Counted from the stretch's first letter, positions 22,285 through 62,600 are shown. The stretch: 64,000 bases of DNA from Blasia pusilla (GCA_050084515.1 CM114271.1:7192001-7256000); one strand, 5' to 3'. A program made the numbers and translations. Notes: a model not told the origin generated them from the letters alone.

Positions 22285-23121
22285 GTTGAGACTCCAAGGC
22301 TTGTCACTATCATCTTGTTTATTATTTTCTACCCTTCCATTTCCCTTAATAAGCATTATATCCCAAACCCATATCTACTGTACTTCCAAGATTAGCCACA
22401 TACTTCACACATTTTAGTTGCTACCATTTATCCATGTCGCATAACTTGCTTTTGAAAAGTGAATTTAAAATACGTAATCAATGAATTCAAGTATTTGATG
22501 AATATTTATAAAGTAGACATTCTAATAAATTTTTTTTGCATTTTTTAGTCAAATTTCCACAAAATAAACGATACTTCCCAAAATTTATAAGAAACTCTTT
22601 GTTATTAAGTATCATTAATAATCTCCACTCTCTAGTAATAGATTTAATCTCTTAAAAAAGTATCACCATGTTGATTTGGAAATATCCTCTCCCTCCCTTG
22701 GAGTCCCTTGCCCACACTTCTTAAAGCGATGCATTTTCTCCCCTTTTCCTATTTGGAAAGAAAAACTCTTCCTCTCTCATTTGGTCACACCTATTTAAAA
22801 AAATAGTTTTTTTTTAAATTACACCTTCTGCTTACATTATTGTAAATAATATCAATAGAGTTAGTGAGCAATAAAATCCTATTTCATAAATTTGACAAGT
22901 TTATTTTGATACTACAGAAAGATTAACTACAAACATATGTAGCTATCTTATAGAAAAATTGTCCAAAACAATAAGAGGCAATCATAATGAATTATATGTC
23001 AATGTAGGAAAATTTTATGCAAGCTAAAAAACTCATGCGCCTACGCATGTCTCTTGCATCCCAAGATTCCTGCCCTGATAGTCCCCCCTCCCTAGGACAT
23101 CAAACTAAGAAGAGATGTCAT

Positions 23122-26100
23122 TATTGAAGATTGAGTTATAATCAAGCTCATGAAACACTTGAACTGTTATATTTGGTACTCACATGAAGTAGAGGAGCTT
23201 AATCTTGGTTAGTCAGTTAAAGGTGATTATCTTAACTAGGGTTAGTTAATCACAATTAGTCTAACTCGAGACTACGATTAGGGTTAGGGTTGCTTGTACA
23301 TACCCTATATAATTGAGAAGGGGACCAACCTCCACTCATTCTCTCATTATAAATTTCGTTCTCCATGGTGGTGTGTGTGTGTGTGAGAGCCGTTTTCCAC
23401 CAATTATGCTTGTTTAGCAGTTTTCCACATGGTATCAGAGCGATAAGAGAACATCACTTGAAATTCTTGGTGTTTGAGGAGAGAAGAGAGGCAAGAGAAG
23501 GAAAAATTTCAGTTTGGGAGAAGGAAATTTTATTCTGAGCTCAGTGGGTGCAAATTTTAGGTGGAGCTTTGATGGTGATAAAACTTTGGAGGCATTTTGA
23601 GGGCTCTTTCTCGATCGGTTTAGTCGTCGGAGTCCGCAAAGGCTATAAAGATGCCTAAGGCAAGTTATAGACGTATTTTATAGCTCGTCAATAGCTTTCC
23701 AACGCATCCAAAATTGCCTGATTTTGACATTTTGAGCTCCTGCAGTAGCAATTTTAGTGTAGGAAAGTGCAATTAGTGAAGAAAAGTTGTGCAGTTTGCT
23801 CTGTACATACCAATCTCGACTAGTTCTTTCATACAATTGATCAATTTTGGCAAATTTCAAGTCAATTTCTGTGTATGAGTGGTCTATGCTTCAATTGGAA
23901 CAGTAGAAAGCATAAAGTAATGTTTTTTTGTGCGTGAAATTGTTCGTCATGGAGTATTCCTCAACAGCAATCACAGGCGAGAAGCTAGATAAGAAGAATT
24001 ACAACGTCTGGAAGTTTCGCATGAAACAATTTCTCATGGGTCAAGAACTATGGGATCTTGTCACAAGTGATGAGGCCAAGCCAGAAGGTGATTTAACATA
24101 CTAGAATGTTCGCGCCTAAAACAAACGCGCAAGACAAGTAATCCACTACATTTCAATAACGATCAGTTCGCCAATGATAGGTCACATTCAAGATGTTGAT
24201 ATTCCGAAGGAGGCATGGGATGCATTGGAAAAACTGTTCCAAACATCTACAAAGGCCACAAAACTTCAATTGAAACAACAATTGAACGAAGTGAGGAAAG
24301 GATGGCAGAGTATCAATGATTATATTTTGAGTATCAGACATATTGTTGATCAGTTGAATAACATTGGGGTGAAAATAGAAGATGATGATATGATTTTATT
24401 CACTCGTCAAGGCCTTCCAAAGGATTACAATTCCTTTGAGATCTTCATCTCTGGGAGAGAGAAGTATCCAACCTTTCAAGAGTTAGTTCCTCTGTTAATC
24501 AGTGAAGAGATGCGCCTAGTAGGCAGCGGTAGATCGTCTAGCCTACAAGAGAGTGCGTTATTTACAGGTTATGGATCAAATAGAGGCAGGGGTCGTGGTA
24601 GAAACTTCCGTGGTCATGCTGGATATCACGCATATGGAGGAAGAGGCACTCAATATGACGTCGCACAATCAACTACGAACCAGTACCACACACAATCATA
24701 AGGCAGTGATGGTGGAAACCGCTAGGGTCGAGGTCAGCAGTTGAGGGTCCCTGGATCTTGCAATTACTGTGGGATAAAGGTTCACTATGCAAATTTTTGC
24801 TTCAAGAAGAAGGCAGATATGAGAACATGAGCCTTATAGCAACAAAACTATGTGGAACACCAACACCAAGAGCAATACCAAGAACAAAAAAATTCATAAA
24901 CGGAGCATCTCTTGGTCATGACTCATCATATGGGAGCAATGGTCAAGAAAGACTCGACAACAGATTGGTACATTGACTCTGGTGCATGAAATCACATAAC
25001 CTCACAAGCTAAATGGTTCAGTAGTTTGGAGCCGGTGAAAGATCCTGCAATTGTGCTCATAGGAGATGACACTCAACATCATATCACGCATATCGATAAA
25101 GTTCCAATAGCATCAGATGTCTTTGTGCTCTTGGAAATGTTCTCTATGTTCCTAGCATTACAAGAAACCTGATCTCTGTAGGACAGATAGTAGAACAGGG
25201 TTATCAAGTGAAGTTTAACGGAGATGGTTATTTCATTGAAATAATGGATGACCATACTACAATAGCCCAAGGAACTAGATCTAGCAGAATGTTCAAATTA
25301 GATGTTTCTATGCCAGAGATTCAAAGAGCAATGTATGGTCAAACCGGCCAACAAGTCATATATCTAAATGTGTGGCATAAAATAATTGGACATATGAATC
25401 TTCAAAGATTACAGAGTCTTTCATAATCCAATATAATAATATGACTCCCTAAATTAGCGAGTCTTGCTACGTTAGAGGTATGTCCCGCTTGCCAATTTGG
25501 AACACAAGCTAGATTTCCTTTTCCAAAGCAAGGTAGAAGAGCATCCAGGATATTGGAGTTGATCCACACTGATGTGTGGACAACATCACAACATAGCCTT
25601 AGTGGTTGCTACTACTTTATTTCATTTATTGATGACTTCTATAGATATATATGGATATACTTTTGGAAGCCAAATGAGAAGTATTCTCAATGTTCCAAAC
25701 ATTCAGAGTTCTAGAAGAGAAGCAGATTGGAGAACACATTATAAAATTGTGTTGTGATGGAGGAGGACAGTATCTTTCAACAAAGTTTGATGACTATTTA
25801 CGTCATAATAACATCCAACGTCAAGTGACTTGTCGTTACACTCCAAAAAAAAATGGAGTGGCTGAGAGGAAGAATCAACATATTGCTGAAGCGACACGAG
25901 CTATGCTGAATGAGAAGAACATGCCTAAAGTGTATTGGGCAGGGGCTATAGCATGTGCAGTCTTCTTAATCAAACGAACTCCAACAGCACAAGTTCATGA
26001 TAAAACTCTATTCAAAGTCTTTATAGGAAGTAAACCTGATTTTTCCTTCTTTAAAGTATTTGGCTGTATTTGTTATGCTCATGTTCCTTCTGAGAGACGT

Positions 26101-26876
26101 CAAAAATTAGACCCCAAGTCTGAAAGATGTATCTTCATTGGCTATGATGATGGAACTTAGGAATATAAGTGCTACATTTCATCCTCTAGGCAGCTTATTA
26201 TTAGTCGGGATGTTTTCTTTGATGACCTAAAGTCATGGTATGCTCCATCTGAGCCGATTCCACCTCTAAACTCGTCTGTTGAGGGGGAGAATATGAGTGT
26301 AAACCAACAGACATTGTCTTCAACTTCCCCAAGTACTAGTGCAGGATTAGGAGAGGTCCTAGATTCATCAGTTAAATCTGTAAGTCCATGGACGAGAAAA
26401 GTACATATTTAGTCTGTTGACACTAGTCAAAGCTCGAGTCAAGTGTCAGAGGCATCTACCTCTGAACAACAACTTCATATATCAAGTAGAGTTACGCATC
26501 CAGTTCATGGATTCATAAATGAAGATTTCATGTCGACACATCATGCATATATGATGACTACCCTTCAAGAGCAAGAGCCGAGTTGTTTTGAAGAAGCTGC
26601 AAGTAAAGCCGAATGGATTGAAGCTATGTGAGGCGGTTTGGCTTCATCGATTACTTGTTGAGATTTGTGTTAGTAACTTAGGATCTAGTGTAATATATAC
26701 ATACAATATAAGTAGCATCAAGCTTGCTAATAACCATGTGTTTCATGCTCGTACAAAGCATGTTGAGATGCACTATCATTTTATCAGAGAGAAAGTGCCT
26801 GGAAGAGAAATAGATCTTGTGTATATAGGTACAGATCAGCAAATTGTTGACATCTTTCCAAAGGCATTGTCGAGAT
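23122..26876 (+). mobile_element. Ty1/copia LTR retrotransposon copy C; RT deleted, 3' LTR missing
   Basis: 5' LTR 23122-23429, PBS TGGTATCAGAGC 23430-23441. gag, protease (WYIDSGA) and integrase similar to copy A. EWIEAM is fused directly to RNase H (CEAVWLHRLL) at 26626-26628; homology stops at ~26876. Confidence 0.92.
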
Positions 26877-27999: not shown

Positions 28000-28430
28000 A
28001 TGTTAGAGTTTTGTAGTGTCTTGAATCTTTGATTGTTAATGTATCATGTCCTCTTCTGCCCAATGTTCTAACTTTTGATCACTTTATCCCTATGTTGTTG
28101 CTTCTATAAATGGAATTATACCATTTGGTCTCAATATCAATATGTTAGAGTTTTGCGCACTCTATAATCTTTGATTGTTAATGTATCATGTCCCCTTATG
28201 CCGAATCTCCCAATATTCTACCTTTTCATCACTTTATCCATATATTGTTGCTTCTACAAATGGAATAATATCATTTGGTCTCAGTATCAATATGTTAGAG
28301 TTTTGCACTCTCTTCAATCTTTGATTGTTAATGTGTCATGTCCTTTTATACCCAATCTCATAATCTTCCACCTTTTGATCACTTTATCCATATATTGTTT
28401 CTTGTACAAATGGTATGATATCATTCAATC
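28000..28430. repeat. Three-copy tandem repeat, ~141-150 bp period
   Basis: ATGTTAGAGTTTTG...TCTTTGATTGTTAATGT.TCATGTCC at ~28000, 28142 and 28292. Confidence 0.8.
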
Positions 28431-28499
28431 TGAATATCCTACGAAATCTCAAACTTCCCCTCGTTACTATGAAATAGATAGTTATATTTTCAATAAAGG

Positions 28500-38439: not shown

Positions 38440-40780
38440 CTCCATTAGTAATGCCTGTCGAAGAACTGCATTCATGGTTGGGGTGCTCGAGAGATTGAAT
38501 GAGAGAGACTACTCATTAAGTAATGCTTGTCGCAGCCTTGCGACGATAGACCCCACGCTCTGGTGAGACTGGGATTGGTGTAGAAGTGGAGAAGGTACCA
38601 TACGAGAGGAGACACTGTCATTTAATGACCATGCAGGGTGTTGGTGGGGAGCTTCCAAGAACACAGTCTAATTTACCAGATGTGGATCCCCCAATACATG
38701 TTACTTACCCGGACAGCAGCTTTGGGCAATAAATCTATGCTGCTGAATGTGTTGAACAGGTCTGGTGTTACCAAGGTGTAACCCGCGAGTAGTTCTTCAG
38801 TTCTGCTTGTTCAGGATATATGAGAGAGGTTAGACACTTGCACGTTTTGCTAAGAGTCTTCTCCCACTGCTTTGGTTATGGTATCTACGAAGGGTTTCTG
38901 GATGAAGAAGAGAGCGACTACTCAATAAGTGGTGCCTGTCCTAACCTTGGGACCATAGATCCCGCACCCTGGTTGGACGGTCCTAGAGACGGATGGGTGT
39001 GGCGAGAGGAAGAAGTGAAAAAGGTACTCGCAGAGGGAGACACTCATATAATGTGAGTGCTGACCATACAAAGTGTTGGTGCGGAGCTTCCTAGAATCAA
39101 CTAGGAAGCTCTTTACAAAAATACCTACTTTACCTGATTTGGCTCCCAACTGCACAAAGGTGTCACATTTTCACCTTCCGCCAGGGACTGAGAAGGGAGA
39201 CTATAGAGATTGTGGGTGAGTACTTCTATCTTAGGTTACAGCTCAAACCCAACAACCAATGGAGAACTAGTGGAAGTCGCAGCAAAATCAATGTAGGATT
39301 GAGGTGTTTGCACATGCTGCAATCCAACTGCAGAAGAATGGAACTGTGACATATCCCACAAACAATCCATATCTTCAAAGCGATTGTCATCCTCGTGACC
39401 TGGTTGGACAATGCTATAGACTGGGATGGGTGTAGAGACCATATACCCTACACTGGTTGGACAGTGCTAGAGCTGGGATGGGTTGAGAGAGGAGAGAGAG
39501 ACTCTACTCCGTAACCTTGCGACCATAGACCCCACACTCTGGTTAGAGACTGGGAAGGGTGTAGAGAGAGTAAGTGAAGAAGGTACCATATGAGAGTTGG
39601 GACAGAGTAATTCTCAGATAGTGCAAATGCTGACCATACTAAGTGTTGGTGCAGAGCTTCCAAGTGTCAACCAGGAAGCTCTTTAAAAGAGTGTCCACTT
39701 TAGCCGATTCAGAGGGAGAGTAGAGAGAGAGTGTGGAGTTATATGTGTAGTATGCCATGATGACCCTCATGCCCCCTCACACGATCACTCTCAACCTCAT
39801 GAGCAATCCCTGGACCACTTGGAACTAAACATCCACTGGAAAACCTCCACAGGAAGCCTAGAGGCCTATGTGTGAGAGGGATATGACATCCGACAGACAC
39901 CTTCACATCCACTGCCCTGGGGTTGAGACCGCACCCCATTGTCCATAGTTAAAATCAAACTGGTGACCTCTTCAAGAGGATTTAAGCCAATTCAAAGCTG
40001 GCATTACCAACTTAGCAATATCGGCATATGCTCTTGCTCTGTGTGTTGTGAATTTCGCTCAGGACACCAAGTAATGACTAGAGGTTTCATCCCCATCGTC
40101 ACACAAGGCTAGATGTGTTCCTATTCTGCTTTTCTTATGGTTCAAGGGGATTGCCCATCCTAAACTTGAACTTGAGCCGGATTCCCAAGTAAGGGGTTCC
40201 CCGCAAATAGTGCTTCAGTTCTGCCTTTTCGGGATATACTGTCAAGAGTGTAGGGTTGAGAGACTGTACTCATTAAGTAGTGCCTGTCGTAGCCTTGCGA
40301 CCATAGACCCCGCGCCCTGGTTGGACGGTGCTTGGTAGGGTTGAGAGAGAGAGAGAGAGAGACTTTATAGACCCCACGCCCTGGTGAGACTACTCATTAC
40401 GTAGTGCCTGTCGCAGCCTTGCGACCATAGACCCCGCGCCCTGGTTGGACGGTACTTGAAACTGAGAGAGACCGTACTCATTAAGTAGTGCCTGTCGTAG
40501 CCTTGCGACCATAGACCCCGCGCCCTGGTTGGACGGTGCTTGAGACTGGGATGGGTGTAGAGAGAGAAGCAAGTGAAGAAGGTACCATATGAGAGGAAGG
40601 AGAATCTCTCATATAGTGTGAGTGCTGACCAAACGTGTTTGTGCGGAGCTTCCAAGTGTCAACCAAGAAGCTCTTCACCACACCATCTACTTTACCTGAT
40701 TGGGATCCCCAATAGACATTACTTACCAGTGCAGCAGCTTTGGGCAATGAATCAAGGCTACTGAATGTGTTGAAGAGACT
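38440..40780 (-). pseudogene. Scrambled tandem array of duplicated 3' exon-intron-exon fragments of an unidentified gene
   Basis: Repeated terminal exon GAGSMVARLRQALLNE(*/Y) at ~38510, 38920, 39505 (partial), 40267, 40392 and 40476. Upstream exon LFNTFSS.D.LPKAA followed by GTAAGT donor at ~38705 and ~40722. Confidence 0.6.
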
Positions 40781-46179: not shown

Positions 46180-47717
46180 GATTTCCTTTCCTATATGCCC
46201 TCCTCCTCCCTCCTCTAACCGATGACGCGAATTCCGACCAGTCCAAATTACAACAAACGTCGGTCCCGCAAAACAACCGCAATTGCAAACGGCAAGGTAT
46301 CTCAGTCCCACAGCTGCAACGAACGGCGTCTCTCTTTCACTGTAGGAAGACGAGCACCGACGAGAAATAAGAAGTCGAATGTCTAAGCTTGTGCGCGTGC
46401 ACGTGCGAGCCGTGATAACTCCTTGAACGTGTCGAGCCCAGTGCGCCAGATATTAATGGGCACGAAATTGGCTCAGGAATCTGTGGTGAGCACCGAATGA
46501 TCACAAACCGGAGGAATTTTCTTCGGCAGTGGATCCAAAAAAAAAAAAATAGACGGGAAGAGAGGAATCGCGCGACTGTCTTACTCTCTCAATCACGATT
46601 TCTCGTGTGACCTCTCTCTCTCCAGTATATCATGTATCACCTGCGCCTTGTCTTTTTGTGAAGCCGGGAACCGGAGTTTTTAATCCGCTCTCCTTTCGAT
46701 ACAAGAGCAATTGATGCTATCTCTTTAAGCCTAAGAATGCCCGTATTAGTCGGCATACCCTCTCACTTTGAGAAAGCCTCGATCCAACCCATAGTTGTCT
46801 TAAGTAATTCTTTTTTCATTTCCTTTTCTTTTCGTTCTATGATTAGAGTTAAATGAAAAAGGCATATCCATTTTATCATAAAGTAAACTTCAAAAGAGGA
46901 CAAAGAAAGGTAATAACATCTAAAAAGAGGAGTCAATTAATGGAATATAAAAAGAAAATGACAAACATCGACTCAATGAGCTACACGATTGATAGTTTGA
47001 AACAAATCTGACAAGAGCACGAGTGGTTGGACAAACGTCTAATTTTTTTCTCCACATAAGAGTTTGCCTTCCTTACACCATTGGATCGAGCGTCCCTTCT
47101 CTCCTCTACCAAGAGCTTCTTTTACCATGCACCAATGGATATGGATCCCTTGAGATCGATGTCCCTTCTCCCGTCCGTCGGAGAGTCATAAACTATAGCT
47201 CTCTACACCCTCTTCCATAGCGGACAACCTTTATGAAAACTTACTTTGCTTAAGAGTATCATATAGTGGTGTTACATGTAGTGGCCCTTGGTCTAGCTTA
47301 GGGCATACCTTTTCAACATGTCCATGAGACCACCTTGTTCAAGGACATATGTGCGTATGTTACCTTCCTAGAGCATGGGGGGATTGAAGAGGGGTGTGAC
47401 CAAGGTGAGGTTTGGAGAGACTTTCAAGGGCAAGATGCTATCAATGGTGGATTAGATTTGGATCCTTTGAAGTTGAAGGTGGTTTGGCTCCAATTTTTAT
47501 TAGATGTTTCTCACTTATGTCCACAAACACAAGTGTACCACAACTCGCCCCCCTAACTGGCGGTTAGGTCCCTCTAACTCCCAGGTAGCCCTATACATCT
47601 ACTACATGCTATACACCTTCTTGGGTGCACGAATCAGAAGGCCGGGTGCTAGGTTGCCCCATCATTAGTCGCCTATCTGTAATCCATATCATGAAAAGAT
47701 CAAGTCATCTACCTCTC

Positions 47718-47860
47718 CTAAGTATATCGAGGACAAACCCACCTTCCAATAGGAACAACATCCATACGTGGAGTCAAACACATCATGTGCCAACCCCTAG
47801 AACACCGATCACACACCAACATACGGGTTGCGTTACCAGCAGACCCACACAACATGCAGC
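47718..47860 (-). pseudogene. PHD finger at the integrase C-terminus
   Basis: CMLCGSAGNATRMLVCDRCSRGWHMMCLTPRMDVVPIGRWVCPRY: C4HC3 pattern with last Cys as Tyr; same ORF as the integrase C-terminal region. Confidence 0.85.
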
Positions 47861-50844
47861 TCAAGCTAGCACGTATCATGGCTAAGCTTGGGTCAATAGC
47901 ACCATCTACATTTGGAAGATGACATGACGCACAATTACGCACATGGTCCTTCCAAACAACTCCATCACGACCCTCCAACATGAGAACTCCAGAAGCTAAC
48001 ATCTCGCGCACTCGTAAAATAGTGCGGCCTGCCGTCACATCTAACGTTGTTGGTGCAATCTGCTGCAAATAGACATAGTCCCCCACATGGAACCTATGAA
48101 TCGATGGTCGATAACCTCCACCCCGAATGGTTGCATACCGCAACGTATCCCTGTGTTGAGCAATGGCAAGGTTCTCAAAGGTTGTTAGCATAACTCTCCG
48201 AAAGAGCTCTGCCCGCTGAGAACACACTCTCATCCACATCTCTGGGTTATCAAGGTTCACCACCTCACTAGACTCCCGACGAATTACTGCTGGCAAGTCT
48301 GGATCTTGGCCGTATAACAGAAAATAAGGTGAGAAGGAAGCCAAGGATGCTTGGCGATCGAACCTATACCCCATGGCTAACCATGGCAATCGAATATCCG
48401 GTCTCCAAGATGCCCTTCAGAGGGCCACACTTGCCCAATGCCCTCTTCACCGTCTGAACCACATGCTCAGCCAAACCATCCGCCTCTGGATGATCTCGAG
48501 ACATGGTCTGATGATCAATCAACGCCTTGTCACACAAGACCTAAAACTCACCCTGAAACTCTGTACCTTGGTCGGTCAGCACTTCAGCTGGTGCACCAAA
48601 ATGACTAAACACTCTATTAAGAAACGCATACGCCCTTCCCTCACTTGCCTTATCAGGTAATGCCACCAACTCAATCCACTTGGAGAAGTGCTCCACCATC
48701 GCCAACACATATCGATGATGTCGTACACTCAACGGTAACGGTCCCGCAAAGTCCACACTCCAAAGGTAACCCAACCCCATAATAGGCAAGGGGTGTAACT
48801 GTGGTGCAGTTTAGGGTTGAATGATGCCCTCACCCGGTCACAAACCATACAACGTGACACCAACTGCTGCACCTGAGTATGCATGCCACGCCACGAATAC
48901 TGACCAAGGAGTAAGCTATATGTACGCTTTACCCCAAAATGTCCCAACTCCTCATGGGCATGTCGCACAATGCCCTCTCTCTGAGCCAAATGCCGCACTA
49001 CTCGTACTCTACCATCCTCCCACACACGTAGAATATGTGTTCCCTCCAATCGATACCTCTTAGCACGTTGAAGAACACGGTCTCGCTCCTTGGCACTCAC
49101 TATGCTTGGCACCCTACTGGTCCGTAGGAACTCCAACACCAACGCATCATCATGAATATCACGTTGATCCGTACCACCATCTCCAACCTTAGTATCTGAA
49201 GGCTCGCCATCTACCCTCTGACTAGAGTAAGATGTCATGTGGTCCTCCATACTAGAGTCCACCCCTAACCAACATAAAAAGGCGGATGCATGCCAACCTG
49301 TCACCATCTCTTCATCAACCTCGCCATGCCATCTAGCCCCAGTTGCATCCTCTTCGCTAGTATATGGGTTCCTACTCAACCCATCAGCATCAAGGTTGGC
49401 AACTCCAGGTCTATGTACCATCCGGAAGTCATACTCCTGTAAGATAAGAGCCCACCGTGCAAGCTTCCCTGGAAGCTTGTCAGACTCCATCAACCACTTG
49501 AGCGGCTGGTGATCAGTAACAAGGGTAAATTGTATGCCAAACAAGTAACACCTAAAGTGTGCCACAGCCCACACTATTGCCAAGCACTCTCCCTCATATG
49601 AGTGCTTGGCAATAGTGCGACTCCGCTGCATTATTCGAACGACTTGCATAGGCCACCACAAACTCCATGTGCTCATCATCATGTTGTGTCAACACCGCTC
49701 CAAGTCCTAACCTACTCCAATCAGTGTGTAATTGAAATGGGCGCCCTCTGATAGGTCTCCTCAAGATAGGCGCCGCCACCAACTGGGCCTTGAGCTCCAC
49801 AAAAGCTCTCTCTTGATCATCTCCCCAGTGCCACTCTTGATCTGATTTCAGCAATTGGTTCAAAGGCTTTGCCATAGCACTAAATCCCTTCACATACCTC
49901 CGATAGTAGTTCGTCAATCCCATGAATGCCCGGACTCTACTCACATCTACCAGATGCGGAATAAGTGCAATAGCCTCCACCTTTGCTTGCTGAACTCCCA
50001 AACCAACTGGATAGATCACATGATCCAAGTACTCAACATCCTCATGGAAGAACTTACACTTTCTTGGATGCAAACGTAGACCATGAGCTTTCAACTGCTC
50101 AAACACAATCTGCAAATGTATCTGATGCTCCTCCACCGTGTTACTGAACACCAAGATATCATCAATGTAACACCGAACAAAATCCAACCCTGCTAGGATC
50201 CTGTCCATCACTCTCTAACACTCGGTAGGTACATTCTTCAACCCAAAGGGTAAGAATTTCCACTGGTACAAACAATCCTTGCCATGAGAGTTGACACCCC
50301 AAAATATTGTCTTGGCCTTGTCACTCTCCCGAATCGGCAATTGATGGTATCCTGCCTGAAGATCCAAAGTACTGAAAATCTTTGCCTGTCCCACCACATC
50401 AAAGATCTCCTCAAGTGTAGGCATGGCATACCTATCGGCCTTGGTTTGCCGATTGATAGGACGGTAATCTCCACACATCCGCCTATCCGTGTAGTTGCCA
50501 TGCATATCCTTTTTAGCAGGCATGACAGTGGCTGATGCATACTCTCTATGCGACAACTCCACTAATCCATCCTCCAAAAGGTCCAACGTCCTACTCCGAA
50601 TCAGGTCCCTCTCCATATCACTATATTGGTAGGGATGATGGAAGATTGGGGTATCACTAGCCAAATCAATCCGTATACCGGGTCCAACCAGAGCACCCAA
50701 CTCCTTCATGCTAAAGGCAAAACAACTCCTATAAGCACGTAGGAACTGTGTGAAGCGTCGTTTCTCACCTCCCGTAAGCTTGGGCCCAAGTAATGGCTCC
50801 CAAGTCTCCTTCACTGGCACACTAGAGGGAGAGGGCGATGCCAT
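47861..50844 (-). pseudogene. Gypsy pol: RT, RNase H, integrase (frameshifted/stopped)
   Basis: ORFs 50215-50844, 49594-50211, 48729-49682, 48541-48789 and 47718-48389 carry RT, RNase H, HHCC and DDE motifs. Confidence 0.92.
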
Positions 50845-51069
50845 TGGTCGCTCATAACCCCCTCACAAGATGGTACACCCTTAGCTACACCATCATCTCG
50901 AGCAAATAACTCCTCCACCAAAGATGAGCAACCAACTCCACATGCCCAGCCATTACATCCCATCTACTCCAAGGATGCAAAATACTACTCTTCTCGCCCC
51001 CAGCCGATGCCTCTACCGTCCCGGTAGCCATCGAGCTCATTACAAGGGGTGGAAGACCCACAGACATAG

Positions 51070-52050
51070 TCCGAAGTCGGCGCTGCTCGGCCATACCAAG
51101 ACTCAAAATCCAAGTCAAATAATTCAGGTCCATGGACTGACCCAACACATGACGTCGTGAAGCCTCGAAATAGAAGCAACATTTGTCACACCAAGAGCAA
51201 ATCCCATCGCAGCTCTCTCTTATCAGCGTTAGGCTCCACCAACTGTCGCACATGAGAATCCCATACAAGCCCCTGACCACCTTCCCTGTAGGCATGTGAC
51301 GAGGGAAAACTCACAAATGTGGGTAGTGCCATCCTAGGCTGGCCCACACGGTTCACCACTGCCATGGGTGACCGATCAATAACCCTCACCACTTGGGAAA
51401 GTCGCCCAAAGATTCAAGATACTATCCACTTTGTCAAAGCGAGGATCCCGCAGACCGCATCATATGCTCGACGAGAACCTCCCTAGGCAACAAGTTTATC
51501 CACCACAAGCATGGACGATGTGCACGCGAGCCAACTCGCGCTGCATCCAACAACACCGCTGGTCCAATCCAAGAGCGCACCTCATGAACATTCGCCATCA
51601 TCTGGGTTCGAGTGTCACCCAACAATAGAATATTCTCCAAAATGTAAGCTGGAGCACGTGCCTGATGAACATGAAGATATCGTAACACCCGTAACATCTC
51701 CCAAAACAATCGAGACCTAGGGTCGTGTTATCCCTCACCACGACCAACACGTGTATGACCCTGACATAGCCATCCAGCAATCACCAAATCCACAGGACCA
51801 ACCCTCTCAAGGTCGTGCGCCGCCAACAATGCAATGTGTGACGGCAAAGCACGCTGGCACCCACGAATAGCTGATGGTGGCAAAAACTCAGGATATCTCC
51901 GCATCAACTGACCAATATATCGAGATGAGACTCTCTGGGCTGTCTCATCTTGCTCCACATACACGTATCTCTGCACAGGAATACCGGCCTGCAACACTGC
52001 AGCCAAACCAGTCCTAATCCCACCAAAGAGATCTAATACACACATGCCCT
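51070..52050 (-). pseudogene. Cytosine-5 DNA methyltransferase catalytic domain (DNMT3/DRM-like) inside the retrotransposon
   Basis: Motif I VLDLFGG (~52017-52045); II YVYVE; IV DLVIAGWLCQG (CTA one transition from Pro CCA); V *HDPRSRLFWE; VI YILENI; VIII SRAHRPCLWWINL; IX EPNADKRE/AMGF; X RRHVLGQSMDLN. Canonical, non-permuted order. Confidence 0.88.
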
Positions 52051-54612
52051 CCGGTGAATACTGCCATACAATGGGTGTAGTATCCAAAGGGGATAACCCA
52101 ACTGGACCAGAAGTAGGAGTCCGCTGTGGGGCCTCCCCTTCCTCGTGAGGTATAACAGCCTCACACCAAGCCTCCTGCACTAGGCGATCAGCCTCCTGCC
52201 GTAGTGCACCGCCTGAACTCCAAAGTGGCACATCCAACGATGAGGATGCCACTGCTGCAAAACTAGGGACCTCCTCTTCCTCCTCATGCACAAGAGAATC
52301 CATAGCAGAAACATTACCCTCCAAAAAGTCTCTTGGCCAAGTGACTACTCCACTAAAACCAGCCACAGATGCTAACACCGTTGGGGAAGACCCTCCTGGT
52401 CGAGCCCCATAGATAAATCTCACAGGAACTTGGCTCATACGTCCATCCTATAAGACGCTGTCTCTGTCCAGTAATCCATCTGAAAACCCATTGGGTACAA
52501 TATTGCTCCTCCAACTAGTACATCATACGACTCGGCTGATGTGACCACTGCAGGTACTCCCAAGCGGGAGCTATCAGTCGCATGATCTGGTCTCAACTGT
52601 GCAGAGAACTTCTCCCGTGTCATGAATTAAGACCTATCATTGGCTCCTCCAAGTGATGTTTGAATCTGGAATGGGCAAGGCTCAAGCTTTGACCTCCGAA
52701 TACCCAAACCAATACATGCCGCCTTTTCCAACATCAAAGGTTGGGCACCAGAGTTTAACAAGATTCTATCTGGTCTATACACCTGTCTTGTAGGACTCAC
52801 CAATCGGAATATCCCACTCCGGTTGTCCAACATAAATACACCAGGTGTAAGCCTCTCACGATCAATGGCTGGCCAGGCTGGTAATGCATCCATCTTCGCC
52901 GCTACTGCCTGCCAAGTAGCATTGGTACTCAATGCTACACCTGATATAGAGGGTCGTTCCACCGCAACACCCTCATCCACCTCAGCACGTGTAGCAATAA
53001 CACTCCCACGTTCACACAACGTGGCTGCTAGCTGAAATACAGGAGCTAAGTCAACTCCTAAAGCCATCAGCTCCGTGGCCGAAAAAAATGGGGATCCCAA
53101 CACTGAAGTTGCCATCCGCAATACTGCACTGGATGTTGCATCCGTGTCTACTACACGCGATATAGATGCCTTAGTCCCCACTGTCGGCTCAATAGGCTGT
53201 GTAGGAATCATGGATGGAGTCCTAAGCACCTCAAACAACAAGAATGACTGGGGAAGCCTAGCTTGCCTCCCAGCCTCACCCCTCTATGGGTCCAACTCCA
53301 CAGTAGCACCACGTGGCTCTGACGCTCGAGTGGCTCCTCTCGTAACTATAGCTGATGCCTCAACCTGTGCTGCACTCGCCATATAAGAGAGATCATCCCC
53401 TCCATAAGAGGTGGAAGCCCCTGCTCCCGAACCTGATCTATGTTGGATACCAGCCATAGTAGCCAACTCTCGCCTCCAATCTGCTCAATCCCGGCGACCA
53501 TAGTCGACTGTCGAGTGGTAGGGGTAGCCAACATAGGCTCTCCAACCACGGGTCCACCTCTACCACCTCTACCATCTCGGCCTCTTGGAGCTACTCCACC
53601 ACGGCCGCGGCCTGATCTCAACTCTGGATGAAGATCAAAGCAACGCTCTCGAGGATGACCTAGTCTCCCGCAATGATCACACTGAGTTGGGGCTGACTGA
53701 GGCCCATCCTCCAAAGTCCGTCTCCCATCCTCTTGGGGAAAAAACTTCCTAACATGATCACCTCCACATGTCCAACATGACTGTCCTTGCTGCGGGGCAG
53801 CAAATTAAGGCAATGGTCTCTACGCAAGTGTCCCTCTAGGACCTGACTGAAGTTGTGTGTACCCCCACGACTCCCACTACTACTACCACCACCACTACTA
53901 CGAGACGGTGAGGTGGGTTGTTGAACACGAGAAGTAGTAGTTATATCCCTAGTGAATGCAGATGTCACCACTCTCTACTTCACCATGTTAAGCTCAATCT
54001 TCTCAGATAGAGCAAACACATGGGTCAATGTGGGTGAATCATCACTCATAAGAGTAGCATCACGTACCCTGCGGCGCAACTCTCTGTCCAAGATCCCATA
54101 CCAAAACTGGATTGCCTGAGCCTCAGTCACACCCTGGGTAATTGAAATCAAGTGTTGCATATGAGTGTTTGCCCTCACAAAGACTCTCACCAGTCTTTCG
54201 CTCAAATTCCTGAAGACTCCTGAACTTCTCTGTCTTCACTCCCTGATAGTTCTTCTTCAACCTCTTGAAGAACTCTACAACCGGGTTGAACGATGGTGGG
54301 GCACTTGTACCTCCACTAGTACCCCCACTGGTACCTCCATGGGTACCCTCCACTGGTACCCCCACTCCGGCTCATACTTATACCACTCAACGTCGGGCTA
54401 GCTGGCATAGTAGGAGCACTACTACCAATACCACCATGGGTGATAGACACATAGCCTGGAGACCAATATTGTCTCCACGCCTCAATCTCAGCAACATGGT
54501 CCTTCCTAAACTCATGGTAATAATCCATGGGTGGTCCCTCTAAGTGCTGAAACAACCCCTTCCAAGCCAAGAAGGGTGTAAACAACGTGGCGTTCCGCAA
54601 CATCTGCATATC

Positions 54613-55630
54613 TCTCGTGCGCCTACTCTCCTTGAATGTTAATCTTGTTTGTTGCGGAAGCGTGCGTTCAGTAGGTCACGCTCTCAACACTGATCTGCAT
54701 CCAAACACGCACTTTGGTTAGTCGGGTCTTGGATCAATCAGCGGGATTACTTTCCGAGTTCTCGTCTCGGACTCTCATCAAACTCAACCTTCCTAGTTTC
54801 GCGGTTTACAACACGGGCAAATCTCGAAAGACTTGGGACAGACTTTCTGGTCGGTTCAGGAACCTGATACGGCGTTTCGCGCCTAGCGGTTCCAACTGTC
54901 CAATGGACATCCAATGAGTTCCTCATCAAGACTCGCACGAAGTGAATCTCGAGTTGGAATCCAAGTGTGGCGTACAAAGTCCACTCCCTTGGATCAAGTT
55001 TGGGTTTCGAATTCCCACGCCAAACTCCCGTTCCATTCCGTGCCTCTGAAACGCCGTTTGGCGCCCAAAGTGGGGATTCGTTTCCCGAGACATCTCGGAG
55101 AGAGTCCTCCCTTACTAGTACTTCTGGGGATCTCCGGGGGCCCCCTACATTTAGGGAAAGACATCCGGGCCTCTCTAATTGGCCCTCAACCCGATTGCTC
55201 TCTCAATTGTTTTTGGCCAATATCTCAGCCTGTACTTATGCGTTTGCTGAGATCTTTGATGCGTCGGAAGCGTCTCAAAATCAGCTTTCCAACGCGCCCT
55301 TACTTGTTCCAAATGCATCTTGGAGCTCAACGTTATGGTCCTAAACACAGTCAGATTCTCCCAAACGCTAGTCGTGTTCCAAATTGGTTCTCACCTCTTT
55401 GGCAACCAACCTCCCAAAACTCAACTCATCTCAAGTCTTGGCTCGCGTTTGGTCTAGGTTTCCTGATGGCGACCACTGATGCATGAAACACACAACTCTG
55501 TTCCGCGTTTCTTCTCTTAGACTTTTCCAAACGCCTCTCCAAAGCGCAAACCTCGCAGCGTGAGTTCCTTTGAGTGCTGATGTTTCGCTTGACGCCTATT
55601 TGGTTTTGTTTGGCTATGAGGGTCGCGAAA
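54613..55630. mobile_element. 1018-bp insertion in gag, probably a solo LTR
   Basis: Exact 5-bp TSD ATATC (54608-54612, 55631-55635). Removal restores gag ...DTWCD-MQMLRN.... Short terminal inverted repeat TCTCGTG...CGCGAAA; no recognisable coding domain. Confidence 0.8.
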
Positions 55631-58600
55631 ATATCACACCATGTATCAAACTCCTGCATGAAGTCCTCCAACTCAATGGTGCCCATTGCACCCGAGTATC
55701 GTCATGGGCCCTTCATGGCCCCATATATCCCGTCCATGTCCCAAATCAATGGAGTTGCAACACTCGATAACAACGTAGAAGACTCGGTGTTTGAAACACC
55801 CTTGTCCTCCTCTTCATCAACCTTCGGAAGTGGAAAAGGTAGCCGATACCTCAATCCACTCCGTGTGAAACCACCACTGTACGCACCTCGGTCCCCAACC
55901 AGACCACCAAAGAACTCCGTGATGACCAACGCCGATGCCGCACCATCACCAAATTACCATCACTAAGTAACCAAGTGACATCGATGTCGCTGTACTATTC
56001 TAGCTCTACAAGCTATGGGTGTAGGCAACCTAACCCGTCAGCACCACAAGAAGCCTCCCATGGTCTACTCATCATCACTCCAGCCTCACTACCGGTAGCA
56101 CATAGGAGTAACACTACTCTGGAAATCAGCGTCAACCCTAACGATGGGCGCGCAAGCAAGAAGCAACGATGGAGGGGATCCAAACAGAGGAAGTCCAAAG
56201 AAAACCCTCCAATCTCAAATGGAAATCAAGGTAACACAATCCACCAAACGTGGCGCCCTGAATCCACAAAACCCACCACACAATTCTAACGCAATAGCTA
56301 CTCCGCCGCGGGTCGATGACGTGCTAGTCGGACTCGCCACACCTAAAAATATCACCTGCATGGAGAGGCTACATCGTACTATGCGCTAGAGGTCCATCAA
56401 CCAAAAAACTTGAGATGCATAAAGTGCCTAACACATCTCCGAACATCACCAAATGAGCTACACCAGTGTGTACACTGGCATAGTTAAGAACTCAGCAGTT
56501 AAGTGTCTTCCAGGCATAATAGCCCAAAGATGGATGACCAATTATGCAACATTCAAATCACAAATCCTGTAAAATTGCCTCACGCCCAAGCAAGCAAGCT
56601 TGCTTGCTTGCTCCTTGCTCCTTACTCCGCCTCTCACGCCCACTCGCCCCGAGCTACCACGAGTTGCCTCGAAGCCTCGAAATGCTTGAGACATGAACCC
56701 TATCACCCCGTTCGCCATGCTTTGCTATGGAGAGAGGCCCAACCAGGGCGCCACCAACGGGATAGGCGTCTCCAACAACGAACGAGTCACCAACCAACCA
56801 GCCCCTCCGATCCGCTATCCACCATAGCGGACCTTGAGCTAGTTTGCGAAAATTTTGATCAGCAATTACTCCACAAATCCTTGACCAAAATTGAATCTAT
56901 TTAAACCAGAATTCATTTGACCACCATAGCTATCTCTCCACAAAAAATCAGCTAACATCAAGCTCTGTACTCCGAGCTAAAAATCAGACAAACTTGTTGT
57001 CCATACACCTCAAGAATCGCAAATCCGACAGCGCTTCCGCCCAGATTCATGCACGCAGAAATCCGCAACGCTCCACACACTCAAGAAGATAGCTTCACTT
57101 GAGATCACAATACAAGTAGCAACAGGAACCTCTCACCCGATCTGGATGAACTTCAACAGAGCTTCCGCATTCCAAGCTCTCCACATTAGAAAACTGTCGA
57201 ACACGAACCAGAATCTTCAATCTTTGATAACTTCCAACTCCCTTGACGAAATCCGGAAATCTAAAGCGCGTTGGAAAGCTCTGAGCAAGACGCTTCTTTT
57301 TCAACCAACCACGCACCAGATTCCTACCTCCAATATAGGCCACAAGCCACAAACATCCATGGCTGAGTACACAATCAGCCCTAACTAGATCCTACTAATC
57401 CACAATCCAAGCTACCATCGATCTACTCGATGTATGAAACTGCATCTCTACCTAGACACTACGGTCCTACATAAGGTATGGCCTCTACTAGCACACTATA
57501 CTCTACGACATAATCCGTATGGTCATGACACTTGACTTTCATTCTATGCCCTCTAATGCCATGATGTATACATTGATATAATATTTAATGTGACGTAGCT
57601 ATCGTAGTTGAATGGATGTATGTTGTATGATGATGTGTATACGCATGACATATTGATTTTTTTTACAAGATTATAGCATTTGAGCAATGAGAATAATTAT
57701 TTTAAAGCATAACTCAAAATAAAACTATAACATCCTGTACCAAATCCCGAGGTGTCAAAGGAATACCATACCAAGTGACATAAAATCCAAAGGTAGTGAC
57801 CCGGAAAAAGCGCCCACTCGGCGCTCCAACAAATGAAATTTGGTTGGAGTGACACCGATTCTTGGGATATCTAAAATACATCGGATCCATAGGAACTTAG
57901 GAAGCAAAACAGATCCATCCTGGTGTAATCCTTGACTATGCAAATAAGGTTCTTACAAGAGTTATTTTTTCATAGTTGGAAACTAAGACAACAACTAGAG
58001 AAGTCCAACTCATAAATGGATTACTAAATAGGTGTTTGTATGAAAGAGTAAGGGGGATCACACTCAAAGGAGTAGCGCTTCAACAACTAGCAAAGCCACT
58101 ACCACCACAAGAGACACAAGAAGATAAGAAGAAAGAGGATATATAGGTACAAAAAGATAGACAAGAAAATAATTTACTACTCTTCGAAGTCCATGTGAGA
58201 GAGCATCTAAGTGTAACCAAAGAGATTTGAAGTAAATTAGGAATACCCTCGTGAGACATGAGAGGAAAAAATTAGTGGTGGCCAAAATTATATCAATGGG
58301 TTCGGATACTCCAGATGATCTCTATGGAGGAAAATGGATGTGGTGAGGAGCAAGGCTACCATATTTTTCAATGGTTATTTGATAACATACTAATATATTG
58401 TGTGAATAATTTGTTATAAGTGAAGTGATTGGGTATGTACAATCACTTCACTAATAACGGTTTTTTTTAACAAAATTTCCACATAGGATGGTATGATTTC
58501 CAAATATTTCCACTCTTCTTTGCTCGCTTTCAGAGAATGCTACCCTCAACATTCTTTGAAAAAAAAGACGATAGAAGAAGATGTCGTGGCCTAGGCAAGT

Positions 58601-58915
58601 ATGAGTTCTAGAGGGAAGAGATCGGAATCAGAAGAAGATAGGAACAACTTTGTTGTTAGCTTGGCTTGAGATGTACAATAATTAAAAATTCTTGCGCCCG
58701 TAGAAGAGGAAACATTTTCTTGCTATCCGATAATCACATATCAAGCAAAGAGGTGTTTGCAAATCAAGAAGGTACTCTCCAATAACAAAATAGATGAGAT
58801 CATCTTGATATTACCTTTCACAAGCACTATGGCACCCCTTAGCCCACAATTGGTGAGGGGTGATTGAGTTTGGACCGAGAAAGGGGCCAATCCAGTGGAA
58901 ACTTAGTTTCTCCCA

Positions 58916-59150
58916 TCTATACTATTATTTGAGGAGGGGTGTACTCTAGGACTCTCCTATGGCAACACCTCTGGAATACAACACGTATTTCTCCTGCAGG
59001 GCATTTTAAATACGGGGCAGGTTCAACACAAAAGGTTAAGGCACATTCAAAGGGGGCCGTATACAAGAGAGGGCGTATACAAGAGGACCGTGCGCACAAG
59101 GAGGGCCGTATACTAGAGAGGACCGTGCATGGCACGGTCACGAGCACTAA
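58916..59150 (+). mobile_element. Small non-autonomous Helitron
   Basis: A|TCTATACTATTA 5' end; hairpin GACCGTGC-ATG-GCACGGTC (59121-59139); CTAA|T 3' end (CTRR); no TSD. Confidence 0.7.
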
Positions 59151-59640
59151 TTAGTATACATTCTCGTGGAAAAAGGCCTTCTTCATTTGCAAACACTTTT
59201 CTCTTTGACAAGTGGTAACTGGATAATAAAAGAATATTTTACATGTTACAAGAAATTTTTTTGGAATTTGTAATCAACATAATTAATCTATTTTCTTCAC
59301 TGAAATTAACTCTTAGACACTTTTTTATTTGCTTACCTTACTAATTATTCCAGAAAACCAGTGTATGATAATAACAAGCCCAATAGTTTCTCTTTGTCTC
59401 ACTTGCTGGGAGGGATCGCATTACAAGGGTGCGCGTTTCGTTTCGCTGCATATGCCACTTGTTTCTGCTTGTCTCTCCTGCTGGGTGAGGTCGATCGCTG
59501 CATGTGCACCTTGTTCGAGTGCTGCTGGGACTGAATTGTGGACAAGGGTGGGGAGGGGAATGCAACGCCGAGGTTTTAGTTTGTGTGTCTTCTTTCCGCT
59601 TCGAAAGAATGGACTGATACTATCTGGATCCTGAAGCAGA

Positions 59641-62600
59641 ATGGGGTGGAGATGGGGAGTGCCCATGGTGGGCAGAGCTGGGAGGGCGCAGCGATGGCGT
59701 AGGCCCTCCGACCTCAAGGCAGTTTTGCTCCGATATGTATACACCGGCAGCAGTGATGTCGACGAGGGTCCAGGAAAGGTGGAGCTGTGGACGTGGGGCA
59801 AAGGCGAAGTGGGGCAATTGGGCCTGGGTGATGAGGAAACCCGACGATCTCCTGCCCTCGTGAGATCACTTGCGTTTCCGCACTCCGCCGGCCTTGCTTC
59901 CGGGCACGGACGATTGGGCGGCGGCGCTGTTGTGGCATCGGAAGCCGAGGATCCAGAATTGCGAAGCTCGAGAGGAAGCGAGCAGCGATCGGAAGCGCAG
60001 TCCAGATTGATGCACAGTCCGTGCGGAGGACTGGAGCATACGGTGGGCATTGCGTGCGGGTTATTCCACTCCGGCTTATGGTCGGCTGGCAAGCTGTGGC
60101 TGTGGGGTAAAGGTGGGGGTGGTCGCTTGGGTTTGGGCTCAGAGGACCCTTACTATACTCCTACTCTCTTGCCGAGCTTGACGGACGTGAAGAGCTTGGC
60201 TCTCGGGGGCTTGCATTCCGCTGCAATTACGAATGGAGGATCACTCTATACCTGGTATCACCCTCCTCACCCCTTTTGCCAATCGCACTGTATTGGGCCG
60301 CCTGTGGGTTTCTCGCTGATTAGCAATGCATTTCTTGGATTTCAGACACCTTTGGAGACCCTCGGTGGAGAGCGGGTGTAGCAAATACGTCATTTGAAAT
60401 GTGCGGGTCATTAGTGTTATTATTAATGCCATTATTTACAGTAGGACATTATTTTTCGAACACCACCATTGTTTTACAAGTGCCATTCGAGCAGGCAGCA
60501 AGTTCTTTGGTCATCCGGGAGAAGGAGTATGATCGTACAATAAAGTGTAGTGGAACCAATGGATTGTAAAGAGTAGTTCTTCCAGGATTTGTTAATAATG
60601 GCATTGAATTTACGGTTGGATACTAATGGTTGTTATTAGCTTGCTTTAGGTGTAGGCCTCTTAATTGCACACTCTCCAAAGGTTTCGGATTTCTTTTATA
60701 ACTTGCAAGAAATTGGCCGAGAAGCTTGAGATAGTGAACCCTTCTGCCGTGTGTCAAACATTTGCGAATTAGGATGGTCGTTATCCCATTTGTAAATAAT
60801 AGTGTTCATTATTCTTGAATTCGAAGGGTCTGACTTACTATGTTTGGACTCACTTGTATGGTTTATGATCTTCGTCTTCCCTTTGACAAGGTTTTCAGGG
60901 GTTTCGGAAGTTTTGGTGCTCTGGGTCATGGCAGCTACTCAAAAGAACTGGTCCCAAGAAAGTTAGTTGGCGAGGAGTGGATGGACAATGTCACTTATGT
61001 GGCGGCAGGAGGATCACACACGGCAGCTATTTCCTCTTCAGGTGTTCTTCCTTTATCCAGAGGAAGTGATCCCCATGCTGTTCTATGGTTTTGAGTGCCC
61101 TGGTTTTCAGTGAGGGTTGTTGGATGCTGTTAAAGACTTTACAGAAGGAAGTCCAGAAAGACTTTCTTTGTGTTGATTAACTTTTATCACAGGATACCTT
61201 GTGGTACGAGTCATGCAGCTTCAATTTAGGAACTTGGTAGGAATGTCATGGCAAAGATTTCTGTGAAATGAAGTGATTTCTCAAGGGAAAATTGAAGATG
61301 ACGGTGTTTCTTTGGCAAGCAGGGGATTTGTACACATGGGGACGAGATGAAGGAGAGGGTAGGTTGGGACATGGAGCAGCCGTTGTCACCGATGAAGGAG
61401 CCGTCTCAAATCCAGTGAAGGTGCAAGCATTGCTTACACCAGTAGCTGCTGTTGCTTGTGGTGGCTTTTCGACCATGGCTTTGACCTCTGGGGGACAGCT
61501 GTGGAGCTGGGGAGGTAATCCAAATTTTCTCTCAATTTCGCACACAGAAATTTTTGGACCTTTGAGTAAAGCATGGCCCAAAGAGTAATTTTAAGTTGTT
61601 GAGGAATGGCAGTATCAACATTCAGAGTTGCATTTTCCACTGCAACTCTGAAAAGCATTGTGCCAAACTTTTTGTCTGCAACAGGGCGACCAGATTAATG
61701 CGAAAGGTTGTTGTATGAACTTTCAATTTCAGGGAATAGTAATTATGAGCTGGGAAGAGGCAACCGACGAGATGACTGGAGACCAAAGCCTATCCCAGAA
61801 CTTGAAAGCAGTCGTATCATTCAAGTGGCGTGTGGTGGATATCATGCTGCAGCTCTTACTGGTACCCTCTTCCACATTCTCCTCATGAGTAGGGTGAGAT
61901 TCACCAAGTCCTTGAAAATAAATCTTAGCATTATGCCCATTCGAAATTGTCATTGTGTTGCTGGGCTAACAAGGATTCAATGGCCTGAGGTTTTGTCTAA
62001 TGGAGCAATTTATGACACTGGTCATTAAATCTGACTCTTTACAGAATATTTTTGTCTGGTACTTTCTCATAACATTTGTCAAACTCCTGCTGTGTACAAA
62101 ACCTTTCCATGTCAAGATCCATGACATCCTCGATTGGGACTCATGCCTCGCAGAAGACGGAAATGTTCTGACATGGGGTCATGGAGGCCACGGGCAGCTA
62201 GGACATGGATCTCTCGATAATGGCAAAGTGCCATGTGTTGTTGAAAGTCTGATGGATGAAAGAGTTGTGTCAATAGCTTGTGGTGGTTCATGGACTGCTT
62301 GTGTCACTGGTGAGTTGAATCTCAGCTCCTGCCTAGATCCTTGTTGCTGAAGAAACCTTCATACTAAGAGCAATGAGAGAATCAGTAAACACGATTTCAA
62401 TTATTTTTGGCCCGTATGTATCTCAAATGTTTAGCTTACACGTCTTGTGGAGTTGGTGATTTCACTCATTCCTGGTTAGTTGTGGTCTGGTTGCGTTACT
62501 CCTTGAGACAACCTCGTAGTTTTTTGACAGCCTTTTCCCATCCGCCTTTTATTTATGTTTGCTGTTACTCTCTGATGTGACATGTGGAACAAGCTTGCTT

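Follow-up and report, generated by a model that had tools for sequence, protein, structure and literature searches.

The window analyzed in this work is a stretch of 64,000 nucleotides from Blasia pusilla (GCA_050084515.1 CM114271.1:7192001-7256000). On its minus strand, between positions 47521 and 57530, it carries what we consider, with a probability of about 0.88, to be an old, dead and 3'-truncated copy of a Ty3/Gypsy-type retrotransposon, from a streptophyte family whose coding region includes a DNMT3-like C5 methyltransferase (DNMT) as an integral part. GC skew is strongly negative at about 46-58 kb of the window, and the retroelement found there lies on the minus strand. Based on stop-to-stop open reading frames (ORFs), Pfam matches and motif positions, its domains follow one another on that strand in the order gag (with CCHC knuckles), protease (PR), DNMT, reverse transcriptase (RT), RNase H (RH), integrase (INT) and PHD finger, and minus-strand ORFs match RVT_1, RT_RNaseH_2, RT_RNaseH, Integrase_H2C2, rve and PHD. 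The succession of protease, RT, RNase H and DDE integrase that, together with a CCHC gag, marks a Ty3/Gypsy element was found in the window copy and also in its relatives; no DIRS-type tyrosine recombinase appeared among the Pfam matches of the scanned relatives, and rve and Integrase_H2C2 are both present in the window copy. A preliminary description of this DNA had placed the element at 47270-57568. Its presence and strand were right, while both ends had to be moved, to 47521 and 57530.

Read along the minus strand, gag extends over 53589-55737, as delimited by tblastn with residues 1-365 of the Marchantia protein P0177 and by ORFs, and has lost its frame through frame changes, stops and an inserted sequence; its two CCHC knuckles are at 53754-53777 and 53655-53681. 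The protease region (52447-53430) reads LLNSGA at its active-site stretch (52744-52761), where relatives read LLDSGA, and Asp_protease_2, which is matched in the relatives P0015, P0338 and P0351, found no match in the window ORF. The DNMT domain follows at 51083-52075, and then the RT with the start of RNase H at 49612-50835 (RVT_1 and RT_RNaseH_2, with the YIDD motif at 50158-50169). RNase H, integrase and the C-terminal PHD finger occupy 47724-49643 (RT_RNaseH, Integrase_H2C2, rve and PHD), with the integrase zinc finger at 48939-48962, the rve core at 48541-48810 and the PHD finger at 47724-47858. Aligned by tblastn with a Marchantia gag-PR-DNMT protein, the window copy breaks up into nine pieces and shows at least 7 frame changes and 8 stops; decay of the RT-integrase part is comparable. 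The window copy itself is an ordinary dead repeat.

In the methyltransferase domain, all motifs are still recognizable. Alignment to a Marchantia relative with intact motifs covers the whole domain, from 52075 down to 51083, in three pieces (frames -1, -3 and -1) with 2 stops, and motifs I to X run unpermuted: motif I is DLFGGIR at 52013-52033, IV is GWLCQG at 51758-51775, VI is ILENI at 51629-51643, VIII is GSRAHRPCLWWINL at 51491-51532, and IX and X are at 51213-51236 and 51122-51142. Thus motifs I, IV, VI, VIII, IX and X of the earlier motif list were located in unpermuted order; the span given there was 51070-52050. The lesions announced with that list were all seen as well, namely LCQ in place of PCQ, an in-frame TAA at 51728-51730 with a second stop, and frame changes near 51473 and at 51213-51220, and the functional ancestor that they were taken to imply agrees with the relatives, which keep the motifs. 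With LCQ in motif IV, ENI in motif VI and a disrupted reading frame, in a family whose other copies retain the motifs, the window DNMT is therefore a pseudogene of a C5 methyltransferase member.

Profile searches, which the preliminary description had proposed as a check, gave a borderline result for the decayed copy and a clear one for its relatives. The separate ORF pieces of the window DNMT had no Pfam match at E<=0.01, and two C-terminal pieces had no DNMT match even at E<=10. Its N-terminal 210 aa, read through one in-frame TAA as X, reached PF00145 with E 1.4e-4 and 21.8 bits, just under the cut-off of 22, while natural stop-free relatives passed with 31.3-49.5 bits. A phmmer search of the DNMT region against 1.84 billion representative proteins returned 1452 matches with E<=1e-3, of which 435 reached E<=1e-10, so that chance resemblance is excluded; many of these matches lie inside proteins of 1200-3400 residues, and the protein atlas labels the domain 'C5 methylase, Streptophyta'.

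As to the class of the enzyme, a profile built from 4 natural intact domains matched DNMT3A with E 4.4e-18 (68.8 bits), DNMT3C with 1.1e-16 and DNMT3B with 2.6e-16, ahead of NtDRM (5.5e-10), M.HhaI (5.6e-7) and AtDRM2 (4e-7), and no DNMT1 or CMT chain was found at E<=0.01 with this profile among solved methyltransferases. The alignment to DNMT3A is collinear. An AlphaFold (AF2) model of the domain of locus L028 (pLDDT 92.5), searched with Foldseek against the PDB, matched DNMT3A/B/C in every row listed down to rank 50 (best E 5.9e-20), with a target TM of 0.80-0.84 for catalytic-domain chains at about 20-22% identity to human DNMT3A/B, and the predicted fold fits DNA-bound DNMT3A/B over the whole domain. 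The DNMT of this family is hence DNMT3-like by its sequence and by its modeled fold, as the preliminary description had supposed when it set the domain apart from canonical DRM. Cellular DNMT3 enzymes (animal DNMT3A/B/C, and moss DNMT3, PMC6453930) give the best sequence and fold match and share the unpermuted order and a short target-recognition region, but the domain of the element has neither PWWP nor ADD and is embedded in a retroelement polyprotein. A DRM identity was considered and rejected, since motifs I, IV, VI, VIII, IX and X run unpermuted along the minus strand and DRM is circularly permuted; plant DRM is a distant relative within the same superfamily, and the match to DRM chains is confined to query positions 9-140, which fall on their C-terminal part; NtDRM is reached solely by way of the segment permuted in DRM. 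We also observed that motif IV of retroelement DNMT3 domains (P0001-P0364) is ECQ in 64/135 and PCQ in 48/135, a widespread variant of the catalytic loop in which Glu replaces Pro before the Cys.

That the methyltransferase belongs to the element is seen from its relatives. Named relatives at 57-74% identity include more than 20 Marchantia polymorpha gene models, whose proteins have intact motifs, together with Calypogeia fissa and Sphagnum, and a profile search added Closterium, a zygnematophyte alga. In metagenome contigs, a relative is encoded in 253 of the 333 pattern-matched stretches, and 80 loci were kept from this source, 47 of the close family, that of the window itself, and 33 of a more distant one. 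The close loci have about 78% nucleotide identity to the window over 47522-54612 and 55631-55927. The DNMT occupies the same place in all 47 of them and in the Marchantia, Calypogeia, Sphagnum and Closterium models, and natural ORFs run through it uninterrupted: P0338 (2358 aa) contains PR-DNMT-RT-RH-INT-PHD, P0015 and P0351 contain CCHC-PR-DNMT-RT-RH-INT, and L054 (847 aa) contains DNMT-RT-RH. These observations bear out the earlier proposal that the methyltransferase sits between protease and RT, on the same strand, as part of the polyprotein, and they supply both the further carriers and the intact PR-MTase-RT frame (in P0338) that the same proposal had called for.

In a DNMT tree of 140 rows, restricted to retroelement DNMTs, the window copy falls together with Marchantia and the copies of the close metagenome loci, Calypogeia comes next, and the PR-DNMT-RT and RH-DNMT-INT arrangements are split on one branch (SH-aLRT, the Shimodaira-Hasegawa-like approximate likelihood ratio test, 99). 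The second of these arrangements, RT-RH-DNMT-INT-PHD, was seen in 47 proteins, all environmental, and PR-DNMT-RT in 14; either the DNMT shifted its place in the polyprotein once or it was taken up twice from close sources. Four Closterium models (P0358, P0360, P0361 and P0363) join a DNMT profile match to a Copia-type RVT_2, and may be chimeras of nested insertions or a Copia-borne DNMT; a DNMT3 in 'LTR Copia' elements is mentioned in PMC12344493. Copies from different sources were unexpectedly alike, with 65-75% protein identity in the DNMT and a synonymous distance (dS) of 0.5-0.9 between the window and loci (L001-L045), and if the hosts of these loci are liverworts and mosses, this likeness would suggest horizontal transfer.

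A second line of evidence is the selection under which the domain evolved, also named beforehand as a point on which the proposal could fail. Codons were placed by tblastn against Marchantia proteins, Nei-Gojobori distances were computed with stop codons dropped, and pairs with fewer than 60 shared codons, saturated sites or dS<=0.05 were left out. Between the window and the close loci, the median ratio of nonsynonymous to synonymous distance (dN/dS) for the DNMT was 0.24 (46 pairs; dN 0.22, dS 0.94), compared to 0.17 for RT-RH (30 pairs), 0.23 for gag (26 pairs) and 0.34 for PR (36 pairs); among loci, the corresponding values were 0.53, 0.41, 0.44 and 0.75. The DNMT evolved under purifying selection about as strong as that on gag. 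In the window and the 47 close loci taken together, the P and the C of motif IV are kept in 44/48 and 47/48, the E and the N of motif VI in 42/47 and 47/47, and the stops in the DNMT are scattered at R, Q and W codons with none common to a majority; because the motifs are kept and the stops are scattered and unshared, the ancestors must have been intact and the lesions independent.

Between DNMT and RT, the close family shows a further conserved feature. ORF1 (gag-PR-DNMT) ends at one in-frame stop, after which comes ORF2 (RT-RH-INT-PHD). The stop is found in all of the 22 loci compared (TAG in 16, TAA in 6), is followed by CAA CCN, and in 19/22 the RT frame opens directly behind it in the same frame. 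Five further loci have a frame offset of 2. A -1 frameshift between ORF1 and ORF2 was considered for these and rejected, as 4 of the five retain TAG/TAA-CAACC (L019 reads TAC) and the offset stems from an upstream indel. The divergent locus L028 keeps TAG CAA CCA in spite of different flanking codons, and the Marchantia models P0177 and P0179 end in the stop region, right after the DNMT and before any RT. At the homologous site of the window copy (50845-50855, minus strand), a 1-nt gap falls on the first base of the stop and the frame changes; in the more distant relatives, no stop is present at this position. Gammaretroviruses use stop-codon readthrough between gag and pol, and tobamoviruses a leaky context of the UAG-CAA type. 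The element resembles them in having one in-frame UAG between the structural/protease frame and the polymerase frame, with CAA next, and differs in that its upstream frame also holds the protease and a methyltransferase. By this analogy the conserved stop is probably leaky, so that the DNMT would be produced along with Gag and protease, in larger amounts than RT and integrase; if it is, the DNMT belongs to the abundant Gag-protease product.

Transcription was assessed by placing raw RNA reads from three runs of the host, sampled at 6-12% of each run, on the element at a likeness of at least 80%. Between 5605 and 6037 reads per run matched. The depth of first mates on the plus strand was 10-100 times that on the minus strand along the whole 10 kb (45-71 vs 0-3.6 in the DNMT bins), and overall depth was uneven, at 90-180 in the 3' part and 15-40 in the 5' part. 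Only 22-27 reads per run were at least 99% alike to the window, and the RNA therefore stems from other copies. Judged by its second base, the LCQ codon is a proline codon in 38/38, 38/38 and 45/45 reads of the three runs and in 97% of DNA word depth, and most reads carry indels near the window frame breaks at 51473 and 50899, as well as at 51431-51435. The host thus carries the family in multiple copies and transcribes it in the sense orientation. A joint from 48190 to 49199 with 9 other letters between was seen in 16, 28 and 44 reads of the three runs, and there is a transcribed deletion-derivative subfamily without about 1 kb of RNase H-integrase.

The ends of the window copy are explained by the ends of its relatives. 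From 57530 downward, the window reads TGTCATGACCATA, as does the start of repeat A in locus L032, and this 5' end (TGTCATGACC...) is identical to the repeat-A start of the relatives. In the window, repeat A is assigned to 57190-57530; its start at 57530 is firm and its extent of ~340 bp was set by analogy with relatives. For 4 loci (5 reference stretches), the A repeats all align weakly to about 57541-57324, at scores close to noise that nonetheless agree in position. The leader, or 5' untranslated region, lies between repeat A and the gag start at 55738-57189 and could be aligned with relatives over no more than 55631-55927 and 56590-56708. At the other end, repeat B begins at 47543, and homology to the B of relatives ends 23 nt later, at 47521, with the rest of B1, A2 and B2 absent; the 3' end of the window copy has therefore been lost. 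The relatives have split direct repeats, A1 - coding - B1 A2 B2, complete in L032 and partial in L037 and L040 (B1-A2-B2) and in L005 and L029 (A1...B1-A2), while L013, L042 and L026 stop after a single B. Fuller relatives end in TGTCATG...CACGACA, of the TG..CA type, and one locus (L032) is flanked by a 4-bp target duplication, AAGG. We found no long terminal repeat (LTR) pair or inverted repeat in the window copy, and Smith-Waterman alignment of its two ends scored 18, with shuffles reaching 22. The lack of an LTR pair follows from the family ending in split direct repeats and from the missing 3' end. The preliminary description had seen no target-site duplication or terminal inverted repeat that would bound the methyltransferase, and searches of this copy likewise found no terminal or inverted repeats.

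Two further features of this copy deserve mention. On the plus strand, 80 bp outside the 5' end of the element, an inverted fragment (57610-57650) matches the 3' end of repeat B (...CATGACA). RNA reads contain the joints 47520<->57615 and 57530<->57650, on opposite strands. The fragment could be accounted for by an inversion that had one of its breaks in B, but no matching target duplication was found. Within gag, a foreign insertion of 1018 bp (54613-55630) interrupts a region that is contiguous in relatives, and is flanked by a 5-bp duplication, GATAT (minus strand, 55635-55631 and 54612-54608). It is missing from some RNA reads, which derive from other copies (joint 54607->55631), and inside it (bin 54968-55311) the strand bias of the reads is reversed, based on which we take it to be a different, transcribed repeat in the opposite orientation; no second copy of it occurs within the 64-kb window.

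Retrotransposons with a DNMT of their own are known from dinoflagellates and one charophyte alga, and the closest counterpart is KnitGypsy-Dnmt3 of Klebsormidium nitens (de Mendoza et al. 2018, PMC5890265). The two share the Gypsy domain set, an unpermuted and intronless Dnmt3-type DNMT inside the coding region, and a streptophyte host. Purifying selection on the DNMT is also common to both (published Ka/Ks < 0.2 there, 0.24 here), and so are DIRS-like repeats in spite of a DDE integrase, arranged A-coding-B-A-B according to the legend of Fig. 4c in PMC5890265 and found here in L032, L037, L040, L005 and L029. The difference lies in the host, which here is a bryophyte-type land plant. The Gypsy-DNMT3 type was thus known from algae, and its occurrence in a land plant is an extension; word-based searches returned no Klebsormidium proteins, an absence that is weak evidence. 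SymbioDIRS-Dnmt3 and SymbioLINE-Dnmt of Symbiodinium (PMC5890265) are likewise retrotransposons with a DNMT, which in SymbioDIRS is also Dnmt3-type and combined with the A-coding-B-A-B arrangement, but they have a tyrosine recombinase or the endonuclease of a long interspersed element (LINE) where our element has an rve integrase, a CCHC gag and an aspartic protease. The EpiLTRs/DAM-LTRs (bioRxiv 10.64898/2026.05.21.726589) are LTR elements that resemble ours in combining DNA methyltransferases with a chromatin-reader domain. Their DNMT, however, is sister to DNMT4 and is found at the 3' end of pol, accompanied by an adenine methyltransferase and a chromodomain, while ours is DNMT3-type, lies between PR and RT, and is joined by a PHD finger.

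According to the preliminary description, this architecture falls outside the standard land-plant Gypsy. A search of main texts, mostly from outside the subscription journals, brought up no account of bryophyte Gypsy elements that carry a DNMT; later texts speak of 'streptophytes (Gypsy-DNMT3)' and cite only PMC5890265, and six Marchantia gene identifiers appeared in none of the main texts found. Yet the architecture is not rare in bryophytes, and public gene models already carry it. Such sequences may already be contained in DNMT trees published as supplements to PMC5890265, PMC12344493 and PMC11244446.

Several points weigh against our interpretation and should be stated together. With the frame changes and stops counted above in gag-PR-DNMT alone, the window copy is unable to make any protein. 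A stop-free DNMT domain was seen in only 3/47 close loci (L005, L008 and L028) and 1/33 distant ones (L054), and in none of the metagenome loci is there an uninterrupted full polyprotein, so that DNA gives no live copy. The DNMT ratio of 0.53 among metagenome loci fits mostly neutral decay after insertion. The RNA is taken as sense by the usual library convention, and a transcript is not necessarily translated. The conserved stop could also have been inherited as part of a two-ORF design that relies on another mechanism. Lastly, the proposed kinship with KnitGypsy-Dnmt3 is based on shared traits and not on a tree.

Among other explanations for these data, the simplest is that a fragment of host DNMT3, or a processed pseudogene of it, landed in one Gypsy copy. 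In this copy, the DNMT is flanked by neither terminal repeats nor a target duplication, which agrees with such a capture but is equally expected if the domain is integral. We judge the idea hardly credible, as the domain keeps its place and its frame relations across the 47 close loci, the Marchantia, Calypogeia, Sphagnum and Closterium models and the uninterrupted ORFs, and given the DNMT ratio of 0.24. Almost as improbable is that the Marchantia-type gag-PR-DNMT frames are domesticated host genes, of which the window would be a decayed paralogue. Public annotation does treat them as genes, and P0177 and P0179 do end right after the DNMT, but that end coincides with the conserved stop region, RT-RH-INT comes next in frame, the family is multi-copy, mostly decayed and of very high word depth in a host DNA run, and its copies are bounded by terminal repeats and a target duplication.

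The family might instead be extinct in its host, with the RNA made up of silencing by-products or of read-through from neighboring genes over dead copies, a prospect that we hold to be unlikely although it has to be taken seriously, as no intact full-length copy was seen in the DNA examined, the DNMT frame is kept in so few of the close loci, and RNA depth is as uneven as reported above. Against extinction, the reads are strongly sense-biased over the whole 10 kb and come from copies unlike the window at the LCQ codon and at the frame breaks near 51473 and 50899, and the Marchantia P0177 and P0173 clusters have 18 and 19 members at >=90% identity, as after recent amplification. It is less probable still that the DNMT is a pseudo-enzyme, a nucleic-acid-binding module (for example, for packaging), or an enzyme that methylates RNA. 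Such a role could fit ECQ in place of PCQ in motif IV of 64/135 relatives with a near-complete domain, and RNA methylation was raised in the Discussion of PMC5890265 for the DNMT of a LINE, which did not methylate DNA when expressed in yeast; the catalytic Cys, the Glu and Asn of ENV, the RxR-type motif VIII and motifs IX/X are however kept in nearly all copies of the bryophyte family, the modeled fold fits DNA-bound DNMT3A/B across the whole domain, and de novo CG methylation by retrotransposon DNMTs has been reported in the same paper.

By comparison with the other retrotransposon Dnmt3s in PMC5890265, the enzyme of intact Gypsy-DNMT3 copies would probably methylate DNA de novo. Its substrate may, more tentatively, be the new cDNA of the element or its fresh insertion, the copy being marked before or at integration, and it is conceivable, if rather doubtful, that the C-terminal PHD finger guides integration through recognition of histone tails. 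The mechanism of a 'mobile epigenetic writer' put forward in the preliminary description remains an inference, and what the DNMT does for the element is an open question also according to the Discussion of PMC5890265. Taken jointly, these steps would amount to a live, transcribed Gypsy-DNMT3 family in bryophytes, including Marchantia polymorpha, whose DNMT is translated with Gag and protease before a leaky UAG-CAA-CCN, is carried along in the particle and methylates the cDNA either ahead of integration or as it occurs, with the integrase PHD picking the chromatin; the family would be an autonomous source of de novo methylation and may have moved between liverworts and mosses (dS 0.5-0.9). As a whole, this scenario is speculative and we would not expect all of it to hold.

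In the remainder of the window, the nearest host gene is an RCC1-repeat exon that resembles mitochondrial RUG3, at 59635-60381 on the plus strand. Its identity is highest to Marchantia paleacea (57%), Riccia (54%) and Calypogeia (53%), ahead of lycophyte and Sphagnum, and this gene places the host among bryophyte-type land plants, probably the liverworts, in line with the earlier assignment of the DNA to a land-plant-type genome. Copia-type elements and repeats (RVT_2, Pol_BBD and Retrotran_gag_2) lie at 2457-10814 and 23120-26876, one Copia pair being 88% identical over 3.5 kb in inverted orientation. Tandem and dispersed repeats of 100-300 bp occur in GC-richer stretches (38495-40777, 13651-14172 and 28000-28438), and the repeat at 13.6-14.2 kb matches 58684-59333 in inverted orientation.

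The family to which this dead copy belongs is a retrotransposon encoding an enzyme of the class that normally silences retrotransposons, now found in land plants and common in bryophyte data. The location of the DNMT in the Gag-protease frame, before a conserved stop, provides a concrete hypothesis on its dosage and packaging. Because Marchantia polymorpha is genetically tractable and has gene models with intact motifs, the question of what the DNMT does for the element is directly testable in that plant.

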